Notes: a model not told the origin generated them from the letters alone. 64,000 nt of DNA from an uncultured Candidatus Saccharibacteria bacterium (GCA_964485445.1 CAZAJJ010000006.1:3321-67320), one strand, 5' to 3'; positions 1 through 8,559 are shown, numbered from the stretch's first letter. Numbers and translations: made by a program.

Positions 1-498
1 GCCAACACGGCGGATAGCGGAAATACCAGTGTTGCCGTCGCCAGTTTCACCTTCGTTGATAATCTCAGTCATAAGGACGGCGTATTGACCACCAGCGGGG
101 ACGTCAGCGGGGACTGTAATAGTATAAGCAACTTCAACTTCGCTATTCGGCTCAACTTCGCCAGTGGATTGAGAGAACTTAATCCAGTCCTTAATGTCAG
201 TATATTGATTGGTGTCTTCGAAATTTTGGGTATATTTCTCATCGACGACGGAATACGGAGTCGCGGAAACACGGAATTTGAAAGGTTTTTTGCCGGTATT
301 TTGAACTTTCATAATACCTGAATGCGTCTCACCGGGTTTCAAGTCACCAACGTCGATACTAGCAGGTGAAACCTGCAAACGATAATCCGGAATTTCCTCG
401 TCCGCAGCAAATACGGGTTGAGCGCTGAAGAAAAATCCAGCCAGAGCGGTCAATAGGAATGCTCCAAAAATTTTACTGAGTTTTTGAACGATTTTCAT
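1..498 (-). CDS. Cell-surface protein with DUF916/DUF3324-like architecture (N-terminal part; gene continues past window start)
   Basis: Hand translation from ATG 498-496 (AGGAGG at 502-507) is open to base 1. Signal peptide, then a beta-rich domain ending VPAGGQYAVLM. Paralog of 51849-52793. Confidence 0.75.
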   Translation of the reverse strand, partial: MKIVQKLSKIFGAFLLTALAGFFFSAQPVFAADEEIPDYRLQVSPASIDVGDLKPGETHSGIMKVQNTGKKPFKFRVSATPYSVVDEKYTQNFEDTNQYTDIKDWIKFSQSTGEVEPNSEVEVAYTITVPADVPAGGQYAVLMTEIINEGETGDGNTGISAIRRVG

Positions 499-618
499 TT
501 ACCTCCTTATTTTTATTCATTATATAGCATGAGCAGGTAAAAAGCAAGATTCCAGGAAGGAAAACTTGAGTAGTTTTAAAAGGCTCAGGAGATAGGTAGC
601 CTATATTATAATATATAT

Positions 619-654
619 AAGAAAAATCCCACCCCTGCGAGAGGATGGGATTTT
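619..654 (-). terminator. Rho-independent terminator after the 677-1279 gene
   Basis: Stem aaaatccca/tgggatttt (623-631 / 646-654) followed by a U-run in minus sense. Confidence 0.7.
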
Positions 655-676
655 GTAGTTCGAAGTTGATTCGAAA

Positions 677-1279
677 TTAGTTATTGACCGTAGCGGTGAA
701 GACAACCGTAGCTTCATAGGTATCAGGAGTCTGAGTGCCATTAGCAGAAGCCTTGAATTTGAAGTTAGTCGTGTTAATGAAAGGATTAGTGTCCGCATCA
801 TCACCGGTGTTAGCGGCAGTCGTGAATTGCTTAACTTCAGTCAAGGTAGCAGGAACGGCAGCATAAGCGCTGTAAGTGCCAGCGGTTTCAGCGTCAGTAG
901 CGTAACCCCAAGCAGAAGTACCAGCAGCTGGAGTTCCAGCAGGAATGGTAGCACCAGTCTTAGCGCCTTTCATAGCAGTCTCACCGTTGAGGGCATTGAT
1001 GCCGAGACTGTAGGTTTGAGCTGAGTTAGAAGTAACTGTCACAGCAAGCGGATCAGTCATTTCAGTAGTCTCACTGTTAAGCGCCAATTTACCAAGATCA
1101 ACCTTACCGCCAGTAGCATCAACGCTAGTAGCGATTGAGATAGCACCTTCAACTTCAGTGGTAACGATAGCGCTGGCGCTACGGCTATACTCAGCCGCAT
1201 ACGTGCTCATTGGTAAAGCAGCCACACCGAGACCCGCTACTACACCGAGGACAGCGATAGTTTTTGCAATTTTAGACAT
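677..1279 (-). CDS. Secreted 200-aa surface protein, WxL-like beta-sandwich candidate (variant A)
   Basis: Signal peptide MSKIAKTIAVLGVVAGLGVAALPMSTYAA, GGAGAA SD, C-terminal TPDTYEATVVFTATV strand. Paralogs at 2464-3066 and 51250-51846. Followed by a DUF916-like gene, as at 51250-52793. Confidence 0.8.
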   Translation of the reverse strand: MSKIAKTIAVLGVVAGLGVAALPMSTYAAEYSRSASAIVTTEVEGAISIATSVDATGGKVDLGKLALNSETTEMTDPLAVTVTSNSAQTYSLGINALNGETAMKGAKTGATIPAGTPAAGTSAWGYATDAETAGTYSAYAAVPATLTEVKQFTTAANTGDDADTNPFINTTNFKFKASANGTQTPDTYEATVVFTATVNN

Positions 1280-1346
1280 TTTGTTCTCCTTTGTCTATTT
1301 ATTTTGATTTACTTTTTATTTATATGACCTTTGTAATTGTTATTAT
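1191..1346. repeat. Left arm of perfect 156-bp inverted repeat
   Basis: Reverse complement is identical base for base to 2397-2552. Covers 67 nt of 5' UTR, the SD and the first 29 codons + 2 nt of the surface-protein gene. Confidence 0.95.
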
Positions 1347-1370
1347 ATAGGACGCTTACGCTTAGGTCAA
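1342..1370 (-). promoter_or_regulatory. Consensus sigma70-type promoter assembled across the left IR junction
   Basis: Minus strand reads TTGACC (1370-1365), exactly 17 nt, then TATAAT (1347-1342). The -35 and first T of the -10 are outside the IR. The right junction reads CATAAT with no -35. Confidence 0.7.
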
Positions 1371-1498
1371 TATATTTTTCTGGCTTTTTTTGGGCATTTT
1401 TACAGAGTTTTCCACATATTGGGATTTGTGCGACATTTGAGTGAAGCGAGGCTCAGAGTTTTCCACGGTTCCAAATCTTTTTTGCATTTTCAGCTATT

Positions 1499-2356
1499 TT
1501 ACGCTTGATATTTAATTTCATAGAGGTCGCGCAGGTCGTAACCCTCGAGATCGCTGAGATATTTTTCTGTCACCCGCTCAGTAGAATGCCCGAGACCAGC
1601 CTGAATTTTCCGAGTCGAGACGCCGAGTTTTTTCAGGTCGGTGGCGTAGGAATGACGAAGATCGTGTGGGCAAAAGTTTGAAAATCCCGCTCGATTAAAT
1701 GCTGCTCGCATATAGGTTCGCAAGGTGCAGACCGCTAGCGGCACTTCGGGCTGTAACGGACTTGGCCAGAAATAGCCCTTAATCTCCTGCCTTTTTATCC
1801 AGTTCTCAAGTCGCCGCAGAGTTTCCGGCTGCAGATAAGCAAAGCGGCGTTTATTGCCTTTACCGATAATCGTCAGGCAATCTTCGTGTAGATTATTCTT
1901 GCGCAAATTTCTTAGTTCGCTAATCCTCAAACCGCAATCAAAACTAAGGCTAATTAACAGCCATTCAAGTTGATTAGCTTGTTCTAGTACGCACTGGATT
2001 TCCGTGCGAGTGAAGCAATTCTTCCGAGGTGGGCGTTCAGCGGACTTAACAATTAAGCCGAGCTGTAAATGCGGCATCGGTAGATTCATAGCTTGTTGCC
2101 AACGGAGCATGGCGCAGAGATGTGCGAGACGGACATTGACCGAACGCCCAGAATTCCCGCGAGCTTTTTGAACTTTAATCCAATGATAAATATGTTGATT
2201 ATTGATTTTTCGGAGATCAGTTAATCCAGTTTCAGAAATAAAATTATTCAGAATATAAGTCTTACTTTGGATGGTAGCCGGACTCATGCGTTTAACTGCC
2301 GTACAGAATTCCAAGTAATTCTGTAGTTGCAAGTAGATCTGATTTTTACGAATCAT
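1499..2356 (-). CDS. Tyrosine site-specific recombinase (XerC/D / phage-integrase family)
   Basis: Catalytic signature GLRISELRNL (R), GKGNKRR (K), HDLRHSYAT (HxxR), LGHS (H), EKYL (Y). AAGGAA SD. Lies between the IRs. Confidence 0.9.
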   Translation of the reverse strand: MIRKNQIYLQLQNYLEFCTAVKRMSPATIQSKTYILNNFISETGLTDLRKINNQHIYHWIKVQKARGNSGRSVNVRLAHLCAMLRWQQAMNLPMPHLQLGLIVKSAERPPRKNCFTRTEIQCVLEQANQLEWLLISLSFDCGLRISELRNLRKNNLHEDCLTIIGKGNKRRFAYLQPETLRRLENWIKRQEIKGYFWPSPLQPEVPLAVCTLRTYMRAAFNRAGFSNFCPHDLRHSYATDLKKLGVSTRKIQAGLGHSTERVTEKYLSDLEGYDLRDLYEIKYQA

Positions 2357-2396
2357 AGAGTTTCCTTATTATGTAATGATTGATATTTATTCCAAC

Positions 2397-2552
2397 ATAA
2401 TAACAATTACAAAGGTCATATAAATAAAAAGTAAATCAAAATAAATAGACAAAGGAGAACAAAATGTCTAAAATTGCAAAAACTATCGCTGTCCTCGGTG
2501 TAGTAGCGGGTCTCGGTGTGGCTGCTTTACCAATGAGCACGTATGCGGCTGA
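2397..2552. repeat. Right arm of perfect 156-bp inverted repeat
   Basis: Identical to the reverse complement of 1191-1346. Confidence 0.95.
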
Positions 2553-3066
2553 CTACTCTCGTAGTGCTAGTGCCATCGTGACGACTCAAGTCGAAGGCGC
2601 CATTTCGATTACAACTGATTCAACGACCGGTACAGTTGATCTCGGAAAACTCGCTCTTAACGGTGAGACTAAAGAAATGGATGCTCCATTGAAGGTTACG
2701 GTCACCTCTAATTCCCCACAAGCCTACACTTTGACTGCAAGCACCTTAGGCGAAGACAACGCGATGCTCGGAAAAGAGACTGGTGCAAAAATCAATGCTG
2801 GAACTCCAGCTGCTGGTACTTCTGCTTGGGGTTACAAGCACAATGGAACCGGTACTATGGCTGCTGCTTATAGTGCTGTTCCAGCTTCTACTTCTCCGGC
2901 TACGATTAAGGAATTCACTCCTGCTGAAGGCGCAACCGGTACTCAGAACGACGCAGTTGATTTCATGTTCAAGGCTTCTGCTAATGGCACTCAGACTCCT
3001 GATACCTATGAGGCAACCGTCGTTTTCACTGCGACTGTTAAGGATCCGAACGCCGCTGGCGACTAA
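2464..3066 (+). CDS. Secreted 200-aa surface protein, WxL-like candidate (variant B)
   Basis: First 29 aa identical to 677-1279. Central region diverged. C-terminal FKASANGTQTPDTYEATVVFTATV shared. Confidence 0.8.
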   Translation: MSKIAKTIAVLGVVAGLGVAALPMSTYAADYSRSASAIVTTQVEGAISITTDSTTGTVDLGKLALNGETKEMDAPLKVTVTSNSPQAYTLTASTLGEDNAMLGKETGAKINAGTPAAGTSAWGYKHNGTGTMAAAYSAVPASTSPATIKEFTPAEGATGTQNDAVDFMFKASANGTQTPDTYEATVVFTATVKDPNAAGD

Positions 3067-3093
3067 TTGGATAGAATTAGCAATTCGAACTAC

Positions 3094-3130
3094 AAAATCT
3101 TCCGCCCTCTCGCAGGGGTGGAAGATTTTT
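3094..3130 (+). terminator. Rho-independent terminator after variant B gene
   Basis: Stem aaaatcttcc/ggaagatttt (3094-3103 / 3120-3129) plus T-run. Related in sequence to the terminator at 619-654. Confidence 0.7.
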
Positions 3131-3133
3131 ATA

Positions 3134-3142
3134 TGGTATGAT
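3134..3142 (+). promoter_or_regulatory. Extended -10 (TGgTATGAT) 6 nt upstream of ATG 3149
   Basis: TG at 3134-3135, hexamer at 3137-3142, ATG at 3149. Leaderless-type spacing. Confidence 0.5.
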
Positions 3143-3148
3143 AGAGAT

Positions 3149-3520
3149 ATGGAAGAAAATAAAGAATTTTACACGACGAATCAAGTTTGTGAGATTTTGA
3201 ACGTGAAGAAAGCGTGGCTGAAGAAAGTCCTCAATCGAGGTTTAGTACGCGGAGTGAGGCGAGGCCGAAATCACTACCGGCTGATTAGCGCTGACCAGTT
3301 GGAGCTGGTTCGAACTTTGAAGTATTTAAGCCAGGGAGAAGGTTTTATGAAAGACCTCAAGACCTATGCTGATTTAGAACACAGAGGGAAGGCGGCGGAG
3401 GAAGTCAAGAAGGCTTTTCTGGAAACGAAGAAACGGCAGTTTTGGGAGGAATTGAAGAATTTGCAGGACGCGATTGACCATATTGAGCGAAAAATTGAGG
3501 TAATTGATAAAAATAGCTAA
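3149..3520 (+). CDS. MerR/excisionase-like helix-turn-helix protein with C-terminal coiled coil
   Basis: FYTTNQVCEILNVKKAWLKKVL...HYRLISADQLELVRTLKYL resembles a MerR-type HTH. The ORF-track N-terminal extension (from 2783) overlaps the upstream gene and is discounted. Confidence 0.6.
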   Translation: MEENKEFYTTNQVCEILNVKKAWLKKVLNRGLVRGVRRGRNHYRLISADQLELVRTLKYLSQGEGFMKDLKTYADLEHRGKAAEEVKKAFLETKKRQFWEELKNLQDAIDHIERKIEVIDKNS

Positions 3521-3526
3521 AATGGC

Positions 3527-3560
3527 AAACTGGGTACCGGGTACCCAGTTTGGTGTTTTT
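3527..3560 (+). terminator. Rho-independent terminator (palindrome aaactgggtaccgggtacccagttt + T-run)
   Basis: 11-bp stem and 3-nt loop, followed by ggtgttttt. Confidence 0.7.
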
Positions 3561-3579
3561 CTAACAGGGGTGGAGATTT

Positions 3580-3607
3580 GCAAAAGTGGGTACCGGGTAC
3601 CCACTTT
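3580..3607 (-). terminator. Possible terminator for uvrA (palindrome aaagtgggtaccgggtacccacttt)
   Basis: Sister hairpin of 3527-3551 with a compensatory c/g swap. Short U-run in minus sense. Confidence 0.4.
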
Positions 3608-3742
3608 GAGGTTTTGGGCGGATTCTGAGGCATGGTTTTTGCATTAAATTTAGGTCATAATTTTGAGCTGTTTTTGAGCCTTGAATTTGGGCTTCAATAG
3701 GCCTAGACAGAGCTTTTTGGCTCGCCATTTCGGGCTGAGGAT

Positions 3743-6742
3743 TTAGAGTCCGAGAATTTCTTTCAAATAGCGGCCGGTCGGAGTGTCGGAGCGGCGGGCG
3801 AGGTCTTCGGGAGTGCCCTCGGCGCAAACTTTTCCGCCATGCAAGCCGCCTTCAGGGCCCATGTCGATGACCCAGTCAGCAGTTTTGATGACGTGGAGAT
3901 TGTGCTCAATAATAATCATAGAATTACCACCATCGACCAGACGGCCGAGAATTTCGAGAAGGCGCTTAACATCGTCGGTATGGAGACCAGTAGTCGGCTC
4001 GTCAAGGATGTAGAGAGTCTTGCCGGTGCTGCGGCGCGAGAGTTCGGTGGCGAGTTTGATGCGCTGGGCTTCCCCGCCGGAGAAAGTCGTAGCGGGCTGG
4101 CCGAGTTTGATATAGCCAAGACCGACTTCTTGGAGAGTTTTGAGTTTGGGACTGATGGACGGAATGTTGGCAAAAAACTCAGCGGCTTCGTCGATCGTCA
4201 TGTCAAGGACTTCGGAAATATCTTTGCCTTTATATTTAATTTCGAGAGCTTCGCGATTGTAGCGCTTGCCGTGGCAGGTCGGGCAAGTAACATAGACGTC
4301 GGGAAGGAAGTGCATTTCGATTTTATTGACGCCGTCGCCTTGACAGGCTTCACAGCGGCCGCCTTTGATATTGAAACTGAAACGGCCGGCTTTGTAGCCG
4401 CGGACTTCGGCTTCGGGTTGGCGAGCAAAAAGTTCGCGGATTTGGTTGAAGACGCCGGTATAAGTTGCGGGGTTACTGCGAGGAGTGCGGCCGATTGGGG
4501 ATTGATCAATGACAATGCACTTGTCGAGATATTCGATGCCGTCGATACGTTCGTGGTTGCCAGCGACAGTTTGGGCGCGGTGAAGACGGGCCAGCAACTC
4601 GTTAGCCAAAATGCCATTGACTAAAGTGGATTTGCCACTGCCCGAGACCCCGGAAACAACCGTCATGACTCCGAGAGGAAAACGAACGTCGATATTCTGA
4701 AGGTTGTTTTCGCGCGCCCCCACAACTACGAGGGCTTGATCCTGCTTCGGTTTGCGGCGCTTTTTTGGGACAGGAATAGTCAATTTGCCGGAAAGATATT
4801 GGCCGGTGATGGAATTATCGTTTTTCGCAACTTCTTTAGGAGTGCCGGCAGCAATGAGGTGGCCACCGTTTTTGCCGGCGCCCGGGCCGATATCAATGAC
4901 ATAATCGGCAGCGCGCATGGTATCTTCGTCGTGTTCAACAACTAAAACCGTATTTTTCAGGTCGCGAAGATGTTTGAGCGTAGCGATGAGCTTATCATTG
5001 TCACGCTGGTGAAGGCCGATACTAGGCTCATCGAGAACGTAGAGCACACCTTGGAGGCCGGAGCCGATTTGAGTCGCAAGGCGAATACGCTGAGCTTCCC
5101 CACCAGACAAAGTATTCGCGGCGCGGCCAAGTTCGAGATAGCCCAGGCCGACATCTTGCATAAATTGGACACGTTCGCGAATTTCCTTGAGAATCGGTTC
5201 GGCAATCAGGGCTTCGCTGGCGGAAAAATGAAGATCGTTTTTCAGAACTTCGAGAGTCGCATCGACGTCGAGATTACACATATCGACAATGTTCAGACCA
5301 TGAATAGTCACGGCGAGCACGGCAGGCTTGAGGCGGGCGCCATGGCAGGTTTGGCACTCATGAACACGCATGAAACGCTCGATATCTTTCTTGACAAAAT
5401 CCGAATCGGATTCACGATGGCGACGCTCAAGGGTCGGAATGACGCCTTCGTAGGTCGATTGATAAGTGGCGCCGTTGCCCCATTTGCCATGACCACCGAC
5501 GGCGACTTCGTATTTTTGGTCGCCAGTACCATAAAGAATCTTCTCGATAGCTTCGTCGCTGAGTTCGCGAATCGGCGTATGGACCGAGAAGCCTTCCTTT
5601 TCGCCAACGGCGGCGAGGCGCTTGAGCCACCAAGATTCTTGGTTGATGCGATTGAACGGGCGAATGCCACCTTCAGCGATAGTCAGATTCGGGTTCAAAA
5701 CTAGGCTAGGATCAATTTCCATACGCGTGCCGAGGCCGGTGCAGGTCGGGCAGGCGCCCTGAGGAGCGTTGAAGCTGAACAGGCGCGGCTCGAGCTCAGG
5801 AATCAATTCGTCAGGATGGAGTTCGCAAGCATAGCGCTGCGAGAACGTGTAAATCGTAGTGGCTGATTCCGGTGAATCAATTTTGTCTCGGCCCGCGTCG
5901 ATGACGCCTGCCGTCGCAGGGTCATCGCGCTTAACCTCGGCCGAGCCTCCGGATGACCTCGCAAAATGATTCACCGAAGCAGCCGCTGCGATATTCTTCG
6001 ATTCGATGGTTTTAGTATTATCATTGATTTTTAACAGTTTAATGATGCCCTGACCGAGGTCGAGCGCTTGTTCAACTGAGCCGGAGATGCGGCTGAGCAG
6101 ATCAGGCGAAAGAATGAAGCGATCAACGACAAGTTCGATGTCGTGGCGGTCGTTTTTGTTCAACTCGGGGAACTCGTCAAGGTCATAAACCACGCCATCG
6201 ACGCGCACGCGCGAAAAGCCTTTGGCTTGGTATTGTTCGGAAATGTGTTGGAAACTACCCTTTTTCTGGGTGACGAGAGGCGCGAGGAGCATCAACTTGC
6301 TGCCGAGAGGTAATTTCATGACTTCATTGACAATATCTTCGACGCTGCGGCGAGAAACTTCGCGATGGCAAATCGGGCAATGCGGAACGCCGACCCGAGC
6401 AAAGAGCAGACGCAAATAATCATAAACTTCGGTCACCGTGGCAACGGTGGAACGAGGGTTGCGGCTGGTGGATTTTTGGTCGATGGAAATGGCAGGAGAG
6501 AGGCCAGTGATACTATCGACGTCAGGCTTGTCCATGACACCGAGAAACATGCGGGCGTAGCTGGAAAGACTTTCGACGTAGCGACGCTGACCTTCGGCGT
6601 AAATCGTGTCAAAAGCCAGGCTCGACTTGCCGCTACCAGACAGACCAGTGATAATCACAAGCTTATCCCGAGGAATATCAACGTCGAGATCTTTGAGATT
6701 GTGTTGCCGCGCGCCGCGGACTTTGATGAAATTGTCGTCCAT
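3743..6742 (-). CDS. uvrA: Excinuclease ABC subunit A (UvrA)
   Basis: Two ABC ATPase modules ([18 protein letters not shown]; LSGGE signatures) and CxxC zinc modules. ORF-track start 6781 is TTG. ATG 6742 ([17 protein letters not shown]) matches the UvrA N-terminus and lies 10 nt from a TATAAT. Confidence 0.95.
5895..5930. repeat. 36-nt hairpin-forming repeat inserted in frame in uvrA (copy 1)
   Basis: gcgtcgatgacgcctgccgtcgcagggtcatcgcgc. 30/36 identical to 35022-35057. Encodes RDDPATAGV within a ~45-aa segment absent from E. coli UvrA. Confidence 0.7.
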
Positions 6743-6915: not shown

Positions 6916-8559
6916 CTAAAAATCAGAAGGTTGGAGGCTTTCGTACCAGAGCATAAGTTCTTCGGCGAGAAAGGCGCATTCTTCGGTGGTTTTGTTGCCC
7001 CAAGGGCGGTCGGCGGCGAGGTCTTTTTGAATACCTTGGAGTTCGGCGAGGAATTTGGGAGCCTGGCGGGCGAGGCGAGCGGTGCGATATTGTTCCCAGG
7101 TTTCGACTTCGTCGGCACTAAGACTAGTGGGGAAATTTTTGGCTTTGTAGTGCAGAAGTAATTCGGGAAGGCGAGGGTCGGCGAATTTTGGATGAAAGTT
7201 AGCCAAATCTTCGGCGGTGTTGCTGCGAACGGCGGAGCAAAGCAACTCGTCTTTTTCGGAAAGGAATTCGCCATCATAAACCGCGGACTCAGCATCGACG
7301 GGCTTAGCGAAATTCGTGCCGCGATTCTGGAAAGATTCAGCCATACGGGCGGCAAATTCGGGATGGGCGCGCAAGGCGGCGAGGTTTTTCTCGATGGTGG
7401 CTTGGTCGAGGGAAATCTTTTTCCAGCCATCGGCCTTCTCGAGGACGCCAAGCGGGGCGATGGCGGAGCAATGATTATATTGCAGGACTTTGACAATAGG
7501 AAAGAAATCGGTTGAGGCAGGTTTTTGAGAATCGGCTGAGTTTTTTTCTGGCTCGGCAGACTTTTTCGAGGACCTTGAAGGCTCGACTGAGGGTTCCTGA
7601 GACTGGACAGAAGCGCCTGAGTTCGAGGCGACCTTGGCGGATTCTGAGGACTGTTTTGAGGATTCTGACGGCTGACTGGAAGCGGCTTTTGAACCTGGAG
7701 CGGGCTTTGGATTTTGATAGCGGGCGCGACCGAACTTTTCGGCGTAAGTGCCATCTTGCTCAGCGGCGAGCAATTCATCGAGATTATAGCGTAAATCAAA
7801 AACGATAAGATTACCATTCGGACCTTCAGCGAGCGGATAGGCGACCGTGGTTTTTTCAAACTCCGAAGGATAGCGGCCGGAAGCATAGACGAAGGGCTGA
7901 GGATGGGCGAGGTTAGCGAGTTTGCGGACGGCGGGCTTTTTACGGAGTTCGAAGAGGAAATTAAAAAGTTGAGGCTGTTTCGTTTTAATCAACTTTGTAA
8001 CTTCAATCAAAGCGACGACATCAGCGAGAGCGTCGTGAGCATGCTCGTGAGAGATATGATTAAGTTTAGTCAGAAGCTCAAGGCGGTTCGTCGGCTTGCC
8101 GTCGGGAGTAAAAGGCCACTCGATACCTTCGGGACGTAAAGCGCGAGTCAGACGCACGACGTCGAGCAAATCCCAGCGACTACGGCGATCTTTCCACTGC
8201 CAAGCATAAACGTCATAAAAATTGCGCCACATAGTCGCGCGGATAAATTCATCATCGAAACGGAGAGAGTTGTAGCCCATAATAATCGTCCGCGGAGTGG
8301 CGACTTCTTCGATGAAAAACTTGGCAAAATCGCGTTCGGAGAGACCGTCCTGGCGAGTGGATTGAGGGGTGATGCCGGTCACCATAATGGCAGAAGGGCT
8401 GGGAAGGGTGTCATCGGAAAGTTCAATAAGGAGATTAACCGGCTCGCCGAGAGGACGGAAATTGAGGTCAGTGCGCTGGCCGGCGAACTGCATAATACGA
8501 TCGGCGCGAGGGTTGAGACCGGAAGTTTCGAGATCATAAAAATAAAAACTTTCCTGCAT
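6916..8559 (-). CDS. sbcB: Exodeoxyribonuclease I (SbcB-like DEDDh 3'-5' exonuclease) with low-complexity insert
   Basis: FYFYDLETSGLNPRADRIMQFAGQRTD, RFDDEF, HDALADV and the C-terminal region are collinear with E. coli ExoI. A ~70-aa S/P/E/K-rich insert is encoded at about 7510-7720. Confidence 0.85.
   Translation of the reverse strand: MQESFYFYDLETSGLNPRADRIMQFAGQRTDLNFRPLGEPVNLLIELSDDTLPSPSAIMVTGITPQSTRQDGLSERDFAKFFIEEVATPRTIIMGYNSLRFDDEFIRATMWRNFYDVYAWQWKDRRSRWDLLDVVRLTRALRPEGIEWPFTPDGKPTNRLELLTKLNHISHEHAHDALADVVALIEVTKLIKTKQPQLFNFLFELRKKPAVRKLANLAHPQPFVYASGRYPSEFEKTTVAYPLAEGPNGNLIVFDLRYNLDELLAAEQDGTYAEKFGRARYQNPKPAPGSKAASSQPSESSKQSSESAKVASNSGASVQSQEPSVEPSRSSKKSAEPEKNSADSQKPASTDFFPIVKVLQYNHCSAIAPLGVLEKADGWKKISLDQATIEKNLAALRAHPEFAARMAESFQNRGTNFAKPVDAESAVYDGEFLSEKDELLCSAVRSNTAEDLANFHPKFADPRLPELLLHYKAKNFPTSLSADEVETWEQYRTARLARQAPKFLAELQGIQKDLAADRPWGNKTTEECAFLAEELMLWYESLQPSDF

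Follow-up and report, generated by a model that had tools for sequence, protein, structure and literature searches.

Results

A recombinase gene between two divergent paralogs

We analyzed computationally a stretch of 64,000 nucleotides from an uncultured Candidatus Saccharibacteria bacterium (GCA_964485445.1, CAZAJJ010000006.1:3321-67320), below referred to as the window, in which a recombinase gene lies between two divergently oriented, paralogous genes for secreted proteins. These paralogs, variant A (677-1279, minus strand) and variant B (2464-3066, plus strand), each code for 200 amino acids and share 67% identity, with no difference up to residue 29 and almost all differences within residues 30-175. 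An initial annotation, made from the DNA sequence alone, had described perfect inverted repeats of 156 bp that enclose a 1050-bp core and hold the 67-nt 5′ untranslated region (UTR), the Shine-Dalgarno (SD) sequence and the first 29 codons of either gene. This description proved exact. The left arm (1191-1346) is the reverse complement of the right arm (2397-2552) at 156 of 156 positions, the first mismatch between them is at 1347/2396, and the unique core spans 1347-2396. Each arm carries five of the six bases of a -10 element, the leader, the SD sequence and 29 codons plus 2 nt of its variant gene, i.e., the part for the signal peptide, with the ATG located 67 nt inside the repeat.

The perfect arms belong to a larger symmetry. 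With a repeat finder, the pair could be extended to 226 nt at 90% identity, and diverged inverted blocks reached out to 622 and 3128, respectively. Downstream of variant A, an intrinsic-terminator-like hairpin (623-654, minus strand) has a 13-pair stem followed by a T run and mirrors the hairpin of variant B (inverted repeats I6 and I10). The latter (3094-3129, plus strand; inverted repeat I15) has 14-nt arms at 93% identity and likewise precedes a T run. The flanking genes and their terminators are one large diverged inverted duplication, the 5′ ends of which are perfectly homogenized. Besides further blocks of these same two genes, the window contains no other long inverted repeat with arms within 6 kb, and it has exactly two copies of the repeat's inner 24 nt versus 0 expected by chance. 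A scan of positions 1-4000 against Rfam gave only sub-threshold chance matches; the leader hence is not a known RNA element.

The sole long open reading frame (ORF) of the core encodes a Xer-like tyrosine recombinase of 285 amino acids (1499-2356, minus strand), as had been annotated. It matched Pfam Phage_integrase (PF00589) with an E value of 1.6e-22 and 80.5 bits at a cut-off of 27.1, and its N-terminal SAM-like domain scored 23.3 at a cut-off of 22.3. The catalytic-type residues R144, H231, R234, H257 and Y266 as well as K166 were invariant across 37 homologs. XerA, IntI4 and XerD were the closest sequence matches in the PDB (4a8e at 2.4e-27). Scores for the NCBIfam equivalogs stayed below their cut-offs (XerA 110.7 versus 220, XerC 94.8 versus 335, XerD 75.4 versus 330), so that the enzyme is Xer-like by its nearest solved structures and not a member of the XerC, XerD or XerA equivalog families. 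In NCBIfam, 'tyrosine-type DNA invertase' was matched weakly (E 1.8e-7), and the match to the FimB/E family was far below cut-off (31 versus 221 bits). The Pfam and NCBIfam scans found no serine-type resolvase domain, all recombinase domains being of the tyrosine type, and an exact-protein look-up of the window's recombinase returned no record and hence no second assembly of this strain. A mobile element or integron was considered and rejected, because the repeats are gene 5′ ends rather than element termini, because attC-like cassettes are absent, and because synteny of the locus is kept between species with a recombinase identity of only about 60%.

A single predicted outward promoter at one junction

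The initial annotation had placed a consensus promoter at the left junction only, and the scan for promoters agreed with this. A sigma-70-type promoter (1342-1370, minus strand) consists of a -35 element TTGACC (1370-1365) in the unique core, a 17-nt spacer and the -10 element TATAAT (1347-1342). It matches the consensus at 11 of 12 positions and was the top site between 400 and 3800. To this promoter the core contributes the -35 element and only the first T of the -10 element, the other five bases of which open the repeat. It is co-directional with the recombinase gene and reads outward across the left repeat, so that variant A is linked to a promoter in the window's orientation and variant B is not. 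The right junction reads CATAAT (2396-2401) with no -35 element at 16-18 nt; the sole outward-facing candidate there is a weak TTGATA-16-AACAAT (9/12), unconserved in relatives.

The interval from the recombinase stop codon to the promoter contains GTGGAAAACTCTG twice in direct orientation, at 1415-1403 and 1466-1454 (within 1403-1466, minus strand). A TGTGGAAAAC box lies about 45-55 nt upstream of the -35 element in L004, L010, L011 and L040 and also in L053, a locus without recombinase, and could be an activator site or UP-type element. Each repeat moreover contains an inward-facing TTTATA-16-TGtTATTAT with an extended -10 element (1319-1346, plus strand; 2397-2424, minus strand), and this -10 element overlaps the outward one on the opposite strand. 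In the repeat 5′ of the recombinase, it could be the recombinase's own promoter, active in either orientation, an idea only, as the TG and the -35 element are not conserved in all loci.

Conservation of the locus among Saccharibacteria

A profile built from the recombinase and its relatives (A1) and searched against one-genome-per-species contigs returned 25 loci, all in metagenome-assembled genomes (MAGs) of Candidatus Saccharibacteria. Eleven of them (L001-L011) have recombinases 57-64% identical to that of the window and occupy the same chromosomal place, in the order ExoI, UvrA, sometimes a small helix-turn-helix (HTH) gene, variant, recombinase, variant and two immunoglobulin (Ig)-fold membrane proteins. 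UvrA of close relatives is 84-90% identical to that of the window (84-87% in L001-L011). This bears out the assignment of the sequence to a genome of the Candidate Phyla Radiation (CPR) type. Inverted repeats of 120-220 bp around a core of 966-1145 bp were present in eight of these eleven loci; of the remaining three, L002 and L005 are on contigs cut at a repeat and L001 is rearranged. In none of the 14 loci with paralogs of 39-47% identity did repeats flank the recombinase gene. Look-ups added L038, L040 and L042 as further loci of the same architecture. More than 13 assemblies of Saccharibacteria thus share it at the same site (ExoI-UvrA ... WxLIP-like genes). Many of the closest recombinase clusters (26/41) are known only from contigs of 0.9-1.2 kb, and in two of these core-only contigs, L039 and L041, the sequence stops exactly 30 nt inside each repeat. 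This is expected of a k=31 assembly of a repeat-flanked core and shows the repeats to be widespread; it does not inform on orientation.

For comparison, the junctions of all loci were read after alignment on the motif TACAAAGGTC. On the 3′ side of the recombinase, all of 18 loci have phased A-tracts, TTGACt as the -35 element and then TAAgCaTAAnCgTCC-TAT|ATAATAAcAaTTACAAAGGTCATA, with a 17-nt spacer before the -10 element and the vertical bar marking the repeat edge. The junction 5′ of the recombinase reads CAAC|ATAAT in all loci read and follows unconserved sequence without a -35 element. In each of the 18 junction pairs, the -35 element hence lies 3′ of the recombinase; none has it at the opposite junction. 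In L010 and L037 the repeat extends slightly further inward and gives TATAAT at both junctions, the -35 element still being unique. Judged from these alignments, a design of one promoter and two identical leaders has been kept while the recombinases diverged to about 60% and the mature variant proteins to 33-58% identity.

Relatives without a recombinase (L053-L062) contain UvrA, one variant gene and the WxLIP-like genes, and there are many such Saccharibacteria; in L053, for example, UvrA and the variant gene are separated by a 141-nt spacer (2860-3000). Upstream of the single variant gene these loci have the same promoter or 'site' sequence, TTGACTTAAACATAACCGTCCTATATAATAACAATTACAAAGGTCATA, including the 17-nt spacer. 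From this comparison, a promoter that already existed seems to have been recruited as the recombination site.

Between UvrA and variant B, the window encodes an HTH_17/MerR-like protein of 123 amino acids (3149-3520, plus strand; Pfam HTH_17 6.5e-6, MerR_1 6.8e-5). Homologs were found in L001, L004 and L010 and not in L003, L006-L009 and L011; a MerR_1/HTH_17 gene was also called in L044-L050, L063, L067 and L068. This accessory neighbor could be a regulator or a directionality factor. Its slot between UvrA and the variant gene is variable and is occupied by a gene for a PemK-like toxin in L038 (3828-4238) and by an LPD3-domain gene in L042 (3280-3600). Just 3′ of the window's HTH gene, a palindrome based on GGGTACCGGGTACCC occurs twice (3527-3559 and 3583-3615, 88% identity), and its first copy scores as a terminator.

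Both orientations of the core occur in nature

In the window and in most loci, recombinase and promoter point to the WxLIP-like side of the locus; in L003 and L009 they point to the UvrA side. Reversibility of the core had been predicted by the initial annotation, and comparison of assemblies revealed opposite orientations in three instances. Between the sister species of L003 and L008, which are about 80% identical, the flanks are collinear and the core with its repeats is reversed. The alignments break at the repeats, and relative to the promoter the orthologous variant genes have changed places. A look-up of variant protein P0167 yielded two types of place with identical neighbors and the recombinase on opposite strands. 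Here, L067 on a 139-kb NCBI contig (GCA_949432415.1) together with two similar places stands against L068 on a 70-kb ENA contig (ERZ17962656/SRR5925356) with five similar ones, i.e., three contigs versus six. In a blastn alignment of these two loci, the flanks (1-1451 and 2436-5618) were collinear at 99.4% and 97.8% identity, and the segment 1293-2594, which comprises core and repeats, was reversed without gaps at 99.2%. A second species showed one orientation in L004 and L063 and the other in L034 (JGI contig) and L064 (7.5-kb scaffold), at 97-99% identity; L004, L063 and L064 come from mouse-gut data sets. The breakpoints lay within the repeats in the same-species pairs.

A third same-species case was not counted, since its minority orientation occurred only in the k=31 Logan contig L048, which is possibly chimeric across the repeat. 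Logan contigs were generally rejected as evidence for orientation, as a repeat longer than k renders the assembly graph ambiguous; L048 and the core-only contigs hence document the presence of repeats only. A scan of metagenomes with a degenerate promoter/repeat junction found only four contigs, among them L034. Both orientations thus occur in nature, in the same species and in sister species, as seen at the level of assemblies. Recurrent inversion with exact bounds in the repeats, on long contigs from different samples, is what an active switch would predict.

A candidate recombination site overlaps the promoter

The innermost part of the repeat is strongly conserved. Its positions 1-5 and 12-21 were invariant in 18 loci, and changes between species were confined to positions 6-11, where TAACAA, TAATAA, TTATAG and TAATAC were found, together with one T-to-A change at position 11. 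These changes are identical in both arms of a locus. We therefore propose a site GTCCTATATAA-TAACAA-TTACAAAGGTC on the promoter side (1326-1353, minus strand), which has an 11-6-11 layout with arms symmetric at 8 of 11 positions and overlaps the -10 element. The second site would be TTCCAACATAA-TAACAA-TTACAAAGGTC (2390-2417, plus strand) with a weak core-side arm (5/11) and the conserved CAAC. An 11-6-11 layout is of the Xer/Cre type and would fit XerA, IntI4 and XerD as the nearest solved relatives of the recombinase; that these are the exact limits of the site we regard as an even bet. Conservation of the site is not by itself proof of recombinase binding, because the relatives without recombinase carry the same sequence. 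The conservation of TTGACTTAAACATAACCGTCCTATATAATAACAATTACAAAGGTCATA hence must in part stem from promoter or regulator function, and the 11-6-11 site is a model.

The layout also prompted us to consider a dif site and a housekeeping Xer enzyme. This was rejected, because the sites always are two inverted copies exactly on the variant-gene promoter and because one MAG (CALBZW01) carries, besides this recombinase, a separate paralog of 46% identity that could be the housekeeping Xer. A clade of paralogs is 41-47% identical to the recombinase (L012, L013, L016 and L020; one member, P0119, is named Caudoviricetes XerD). Its members have no repeats around their own gene, and a perfect inverted repeat pair of 18-37 bp, with the copies about 0.7 kb apart, lies 2-3 kb upstream. 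In L012 these repeats (2050-2086 and 2813-2849) are the first approximately 10 codons of two convergent ORFs, which has the look of a distinct system that inverts gene bodies in the manner of the Mu G segment.

Three natural variants of the locus were informative. In L043 (2646-3730), UvrA is followed by an intact 298-aa recombinase gene, the promoter and a single variant gene, and on the UvrA side only CAAC and 21 bp of the repeat, ATAATAACAATTACAAAGGTC, are left. Since L043 retains only these, we argue that the inner 21 bp with a few core bases are the functional site; this locus may define the minimal site and plausibly is an ON/OFF version of the switch. L007 is the only locus with an in-frame stop codon (TAG) in the recombinase gene and the only one with a decayed repeat, which has a perfect run of 7 nt and 93% identity over 122 nt, with two mismatches in the proposed center and arm. 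In L001 (4962-8218), recombinase and promoter have a fixed place next to UvrA, and the leader and signal peptide, too, remain outside the invertible segment. Here the repeats (5929-6105 and 7863-8038) bracket a 2.1-kb segment of two convergent variant genes with an HTH gene between them. From this arrangement, inversion would swap the gene bodies under a fixed promoter, with the same outcome by a different topology.

The outer repeat is homogenized up to the signal peptide cleavage site

Perfect identity of the two arms stopped at codon 27-29, at or just after the cleavage motif ...SSYA|A, in 12 of 13 two-gene loci; endpoints elsewhere were at codon 47 in L010 and codon 19 in L011. Past the cleavage site, ungapped identity of the paralogs falls to background. 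As the leader differs between species and is identical within each locus, the arms undergo concerted evolution. Exchange at the inner repeat edge does not explain 156 bp of identity, and a second process is thus needed. The arms are probably kept identical by gene conversion, to which RecA-mediated exchange may contribute.

Outside the arms, the variant on the UvrA side is even replaced between strains. Within one species with flanks 97-99.7% identical, L067 (2585-3645) has a 205-aa variant gene and an HTH gene, and L008 a 198-aa variant gene. The borders of this replacement are the outer repeat end and a position before UvrA, so that the conserved signal-peptide region and the 3′ end seem to act as cassette borders.

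Variant proteins and their WxLIP-like neighbor

The signal peptide of the variant proteins ends in ...STYA|AE, where there is no Cys; the proteins are hence without a lipobox. No Pfam or NCBIfam family matched the variant family, and no source gave it a name. It comprised between 228 (word-index search) and 4058 representative relatives (profile search). In a search of 1.84 billion proteins, ten longer members of the top-150 list had no Pfam domain either. The AlphaFold2 (AF2) model of variant A (predicted local distance difference test, pLDDT, 79) shows an all-beta sandwich; the N-terminal stretch ahead of it is poorly ordered and hydrophobic in an alternating pattern. In a fold search of the PDB with this model, chaperone-usher pilins such as CfaB, FimA, CsuA/B, PapA and Caf1 made up most of the top 50 matches and all of the top 23; the archaeal cannula subunit CanA was also among the matches. 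The scores were modest, with E values of 1e-4 to 3e-2 and template modeling (TM) scores of 0.43/0.55. A search of a viral structure library yielded nothing significant, and no usher was recognized among the genes read beside these loci. The models thus depict the toggled proteins as pilin-like, incomplete-looking beta-sandwiches. We considered them as members of the WxL family and rejected this on the sequence level. None of 60 family members matched the WxL model at E values up to 1, no PDB chain matched the family by sequence even with profiles, and the dual W-x-L motif is absent, W124 being the one invariant Trp.

Next to variant A, the window begins with a gene for a WxLIP-like (DUF916-like), membrane-anchored Ig-fold protein that is syntenic in all loci. 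Its N-terminal 166 codons (1-498, minus strand) are included before the window start cuts it. In relatives this partner has about 309 amino acids with a signal peptide, Ig-like domains and a C-terminal hydrophobic tail. PF06030 (WxLIP_PGBD, i.e., DUF916) was sub-threshold in 10 of 11 orthologs (E 7e-4 to 0.07, below 27.3 bits), and precomputed assignments placed it on 15 of 62 homologs. The top PDB match of the AF2 model was E. faecium WxLIP (9i25_C) with an E value of 1.3e-8, at a TM score of only 0.35-0.38 and a model pLDDT of 68; WxLIP 9i1y (E about 1e-8) and then PapD-type chaperones followed. The partner gene is located 3′ of a strong terminator, has a possible -10 element of its own and is conserved beside the whole locus, including relatives with a single variant gene and no recombinase. 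It therefore probably serves whichever variant is expressed. Of the initial annotation, which had assigned a DUF916-like partner to variant A, the partner with its WxLIP-like fold has stood, but it probably does not belong to variant A alone.

Discussion

Our analyses suggest that this locus is a recombinase-carrying invertible promoter cassette that would result in mutually exclusive expression of variant A or variant B, a reading to which we assign a probability of roughly 85%. With somewhat less assurance, we consider it likely that the exchange is catalyzed by the recombinase. The mechanism that we infer comprises transcription from the core promoter, recombinase-dependent inversion, a crossover site in the repeat, gene conversion of the arms and a role of the toggled proteins. 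One end of the core carries a single outward promoter, predicted to be strong and composed of A-tracts, TTGACC, the 17-nt spacer and TATAAT. Its -35 element and the first T of its -10 element are specific to the core, and the rest of the -10 element, the leader, the SD sequence and the signal peptide are common to both genes. In the window's orientation this promoter is predicted to drive variant A; variant B sees CATAAT without a -35 element and should be silent. The most likely target of the recombinase is the innermost, conserved stretch of 21-28 bp in each repeat, with the TAACAA center as the proposed crossover region, and inversion of the core would turn promoter and recombinase gene toward variant B. 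The outer approximately 130 bp of the repeat would not be needed for strand exchange and probably are kept identical by gene conversion; past the signal peptide cleavage site, where the repeat ends, the mature proteins differ and are even exchanged from strain to strain. The toggled protein probably docks on the WxLIP-like, PapD-fold anchored protein, in analogy to small WxL proteins in Firmicutes, and a switch would thus change the exposed surface subunit.

Several observations weigh against this reading. Evidence for orientation stems from assemblies of different samples and not from reads within one population, and in short-read assemblies the orientation of a segment flanked by repeats of about 150 bp rests on read pairs and could occasionally be mis-set. 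The orientation that faces the WxLIP-like gene predominates in about 75-80% of the assemblies counted, and switching may be an infrequent or biased event. A crossover at the inner end of the repeat leaves the perfect identity over 156 bp unexplained, so that gene conversion or RecA must be assumed. Finally, the promoter or 'site' sequence is also found upstream of the single variant gene in loci without a recombinase (L053-L062).

The last two points bear on an alternative in which RecA-dependent homologous recombination across the 156-bp repeats inverts the core and the recombinase is a passenger with another role, e.g., in dimer resolution or mobility. Repeats of 120-220 bp in perfect identity are far beyond what a tyrosine recombinase needs, identity of leader and signal peptide requires a homology-driven process anyway, and the proposed site is conserved where the recombinase is absent. 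The recombinase, however, rides with the core in every species, and repeats surround it in eight of eleven close loci as opposed to none of the 14 paralog loci. The intact recombinase of L043 is accompanied by a repeat of only 21 bp, too short for efficient RecA exchange, and in L007 a nonsense mutation in the recombinase gene coincides with a decaying repeat. Moreover, variation in the inner repeat is limited to a 6-bp center between invariant arms, as expected of a tyrosine recombinase site, and with the paralog in CALBZW01 a possible housekeeping Xer is encoded separately. We thus regard inversion by RecA alone as improbable.

More improbable still is a static locus, i.e., an inverted duplication of one gene around an unrelated integrase, in which differences in orientation would be ancient single events or choices of the assembler. 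The predominance of one orientation would agree with this, as would a possible mis-orientation of repeat-flanked segments by short-read assemblers and the fact that heterogeneity is known from assemblies and not from reads. Yet both orientations recur, independently, in no fewer than two species; identity is 97-99%, the contigs measure 70-139 kb, one species has three contigs versus six, and the breakpoints are always within the repeats. A repeat that is perfect within a locus and different between species moreover indicates concerted evolution, and only inversion lets the promoter serve the second gene, whose ORF, SD sequence and terminator stay intact in all species. Least probable of all is constitutive expression of both variants from a promoter wholly inside the repeat, with the core promoter irrelevant or serving something else: the TAGACA-17-TAAAAT found there (10/12) overlaps the start codon and reaches 10 nt past the ATG, which would leave the start codon out of the transcript, the spacing of this match is unconserved in relatives, and the core-borne -35 element is kept in 18 of 18 loci and lies directly upstream of the single gene in relatives without recombinase.

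In working principle, the inverting cassette that we favor has three closest counterparts, namely the Mycoplasma vpma/vsp systems, the Salmonella H segment and the Campylobacter fetus sap locus. The first of these comprise the vpma locus of Mycoplasma agalactiae and the vsp locus of M. bovis. There, a locus-encoded Xer-like tyrosine recombinase (Xer1/Mbr) acts on a gene family with one unique promoter, a conserved 5′ UTR and signal peptide, recombination sites in the 5′ UTR and divergent mature parts (PMC2268961). Site-specific inversion puts the promoter before a different, silent surface-protein gene there, as it would in the cassette. In contrast to vpma/vsp with six or more genes, the Saccharibacteria locus has two, and its recombinase gene is inside the invertible segment together with the promoter. 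It also differs by a Sec-type AxA signal peptide without lipobox, by proteins unrelated to Vpma, by its Patescibacterium host and by a crossover region that appears to overlap the -10 element.

In the Salmonella H segment (hin-fljBA), an invertible segment of about 1 kb with an invertase gene and an outward promoter switches the surface antigen. Hin is a serine invertase that uses 26-bp hix sites and a Fis-dependent enhancer, and it turns fljBA ON or OFF, the second antigen being controlled via the FljA repressor. The Saccharibacteria core resembles this segment in size and in carrying both invertase gene and outward promoter; unlike it, the enzyme is of the tyrosine type and the promoter would physically alternate between two flanking paralogs. 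In the sap locus of Campylobacter fetus, described by Dworkin and Blaser in 1996-97, a segment of about 6 kb with secretion genes reportedly inverts in a RecA-dependent manner and without a dedicated recombinase. Common to sap and the locus analyzed here are opposed surface-protein paralogs that share an identical 5′ region, which is the inverted repeat, with a unique promoter between them; the dedicated recombinase in a 1-kb core sets the latter apart. The fimS element of E. coli (FimB/FimE) and the invertible promoters of Bacteroides and Clostridioides (Tsr, RecV; PhaseFinder-type invertons) are ON/OFF elements of about 200-400 bp with repeats of 9-30 bp and the recombinase gene outside. With these the cassette shares a tyrosine recombinase, a predicted repeat-flanked promoter and the association with surface structures; it differs by the recombinase inside the element, the core of about 1 kb and the 156-bp repeats. 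L001, in which promoter, leader and signal peptide are fixed and the invertible segment has two convergent, alternative gene bodies, in turn resembles the Moraxella piv pilin inversion and the Mu G segment. Piv is a DEDD-type recombinase and phage Mu Gin a serine invertase, as opposed to the tyrosine-type enzyme of L001. The switch hence differs from vpma/vsp, the H segment and sap in recombinase class or placement, gene number, protein family and host.

With regard to the proteins, WxLIP in Firmicutes has been proposed to complete the sandwich of the small WxL protein by strand insertion (PMC10599100). The Firmicutes WxL/WxLIP (DUF916-DUF3324) clusters (PMC10599100; PDB 9i25, 9i1y) likewise combine a secreted beta-sandwich protein of about 200 amino acids with an Ig-Ig-transmembrane protein, and completion by a WxLIP strand would fit the pilin-like, chaperone-complemented look of the variant proteins. 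In contrast to these clusters, the variant family has neither a Pfam WxL match nor the dual W-x-L motif and only one invariant Trp. From the models, the simplest reading is a divergent WxL/WxLIP-like surface module in which the exposed small subunit is varied, with WxL membership itself unsupported by sequence. We found no report of WxL clusters controlled by DNA inversion. Nor did the paper library searched contain anything that joins Saccharibacteria or Patescibacteria with invertible promoters or phase variation of surface proteins, only hsdS invertons being reported there for the phylum.

We may thus speculate that this is the first programmed inversion for phase or antigenic variation of the surface in Patescibacteria, that a recombinase-promoter cassette toggles pilin-like subunits held by WxLIP-like strand insertion and so changes the epibiont surface, and that the switch evolved by promoter capture along an evolutionary series. 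As a whole this combination is tentative and less likely than not. If it is true, recombination site and -10 element would be one composite element, present as a plain promoter in relatives without recombinase, and an existing promoter would have been captured as the crossover site. The lineage would contain a series from no switch via a 21-bp ON/OFF form to the A/B toggle and to a fixed promoter with inverting gene bodies. The architectures that coexist in this lineage illustrate how switches of this kind can come about.

In practical terms, the 1-kb cassette with its possibly 21-28-bp site would be a compact tyrosine recombinase inversion module, and with the conserved junction sequence, gut metagenomes already at hand can be scored for orientation directly.

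Regulation is little known in the Saccharibacteria, which live as ultrasmall, obligate epibionts and have reduced genomes. In mycoplasmas, Bacteroides and pathogens, stochastic surface variation counters immunity or phages or changes adhesion. A conserved, self-contained switch would show that Saccharibacteria, too, invest in stochastic surface variation. It would also single out the variant family as an exposed structure of importance. This family, which has thousands of unnamed relatives and is located beside WxLIP-like proteins, is a candidate for how these epibionts recognize and hold their host bacteria. If the proposal is true, an altered epibiont surface may set which host bacterium is bound, or may affect the binding of phages or antibodies.

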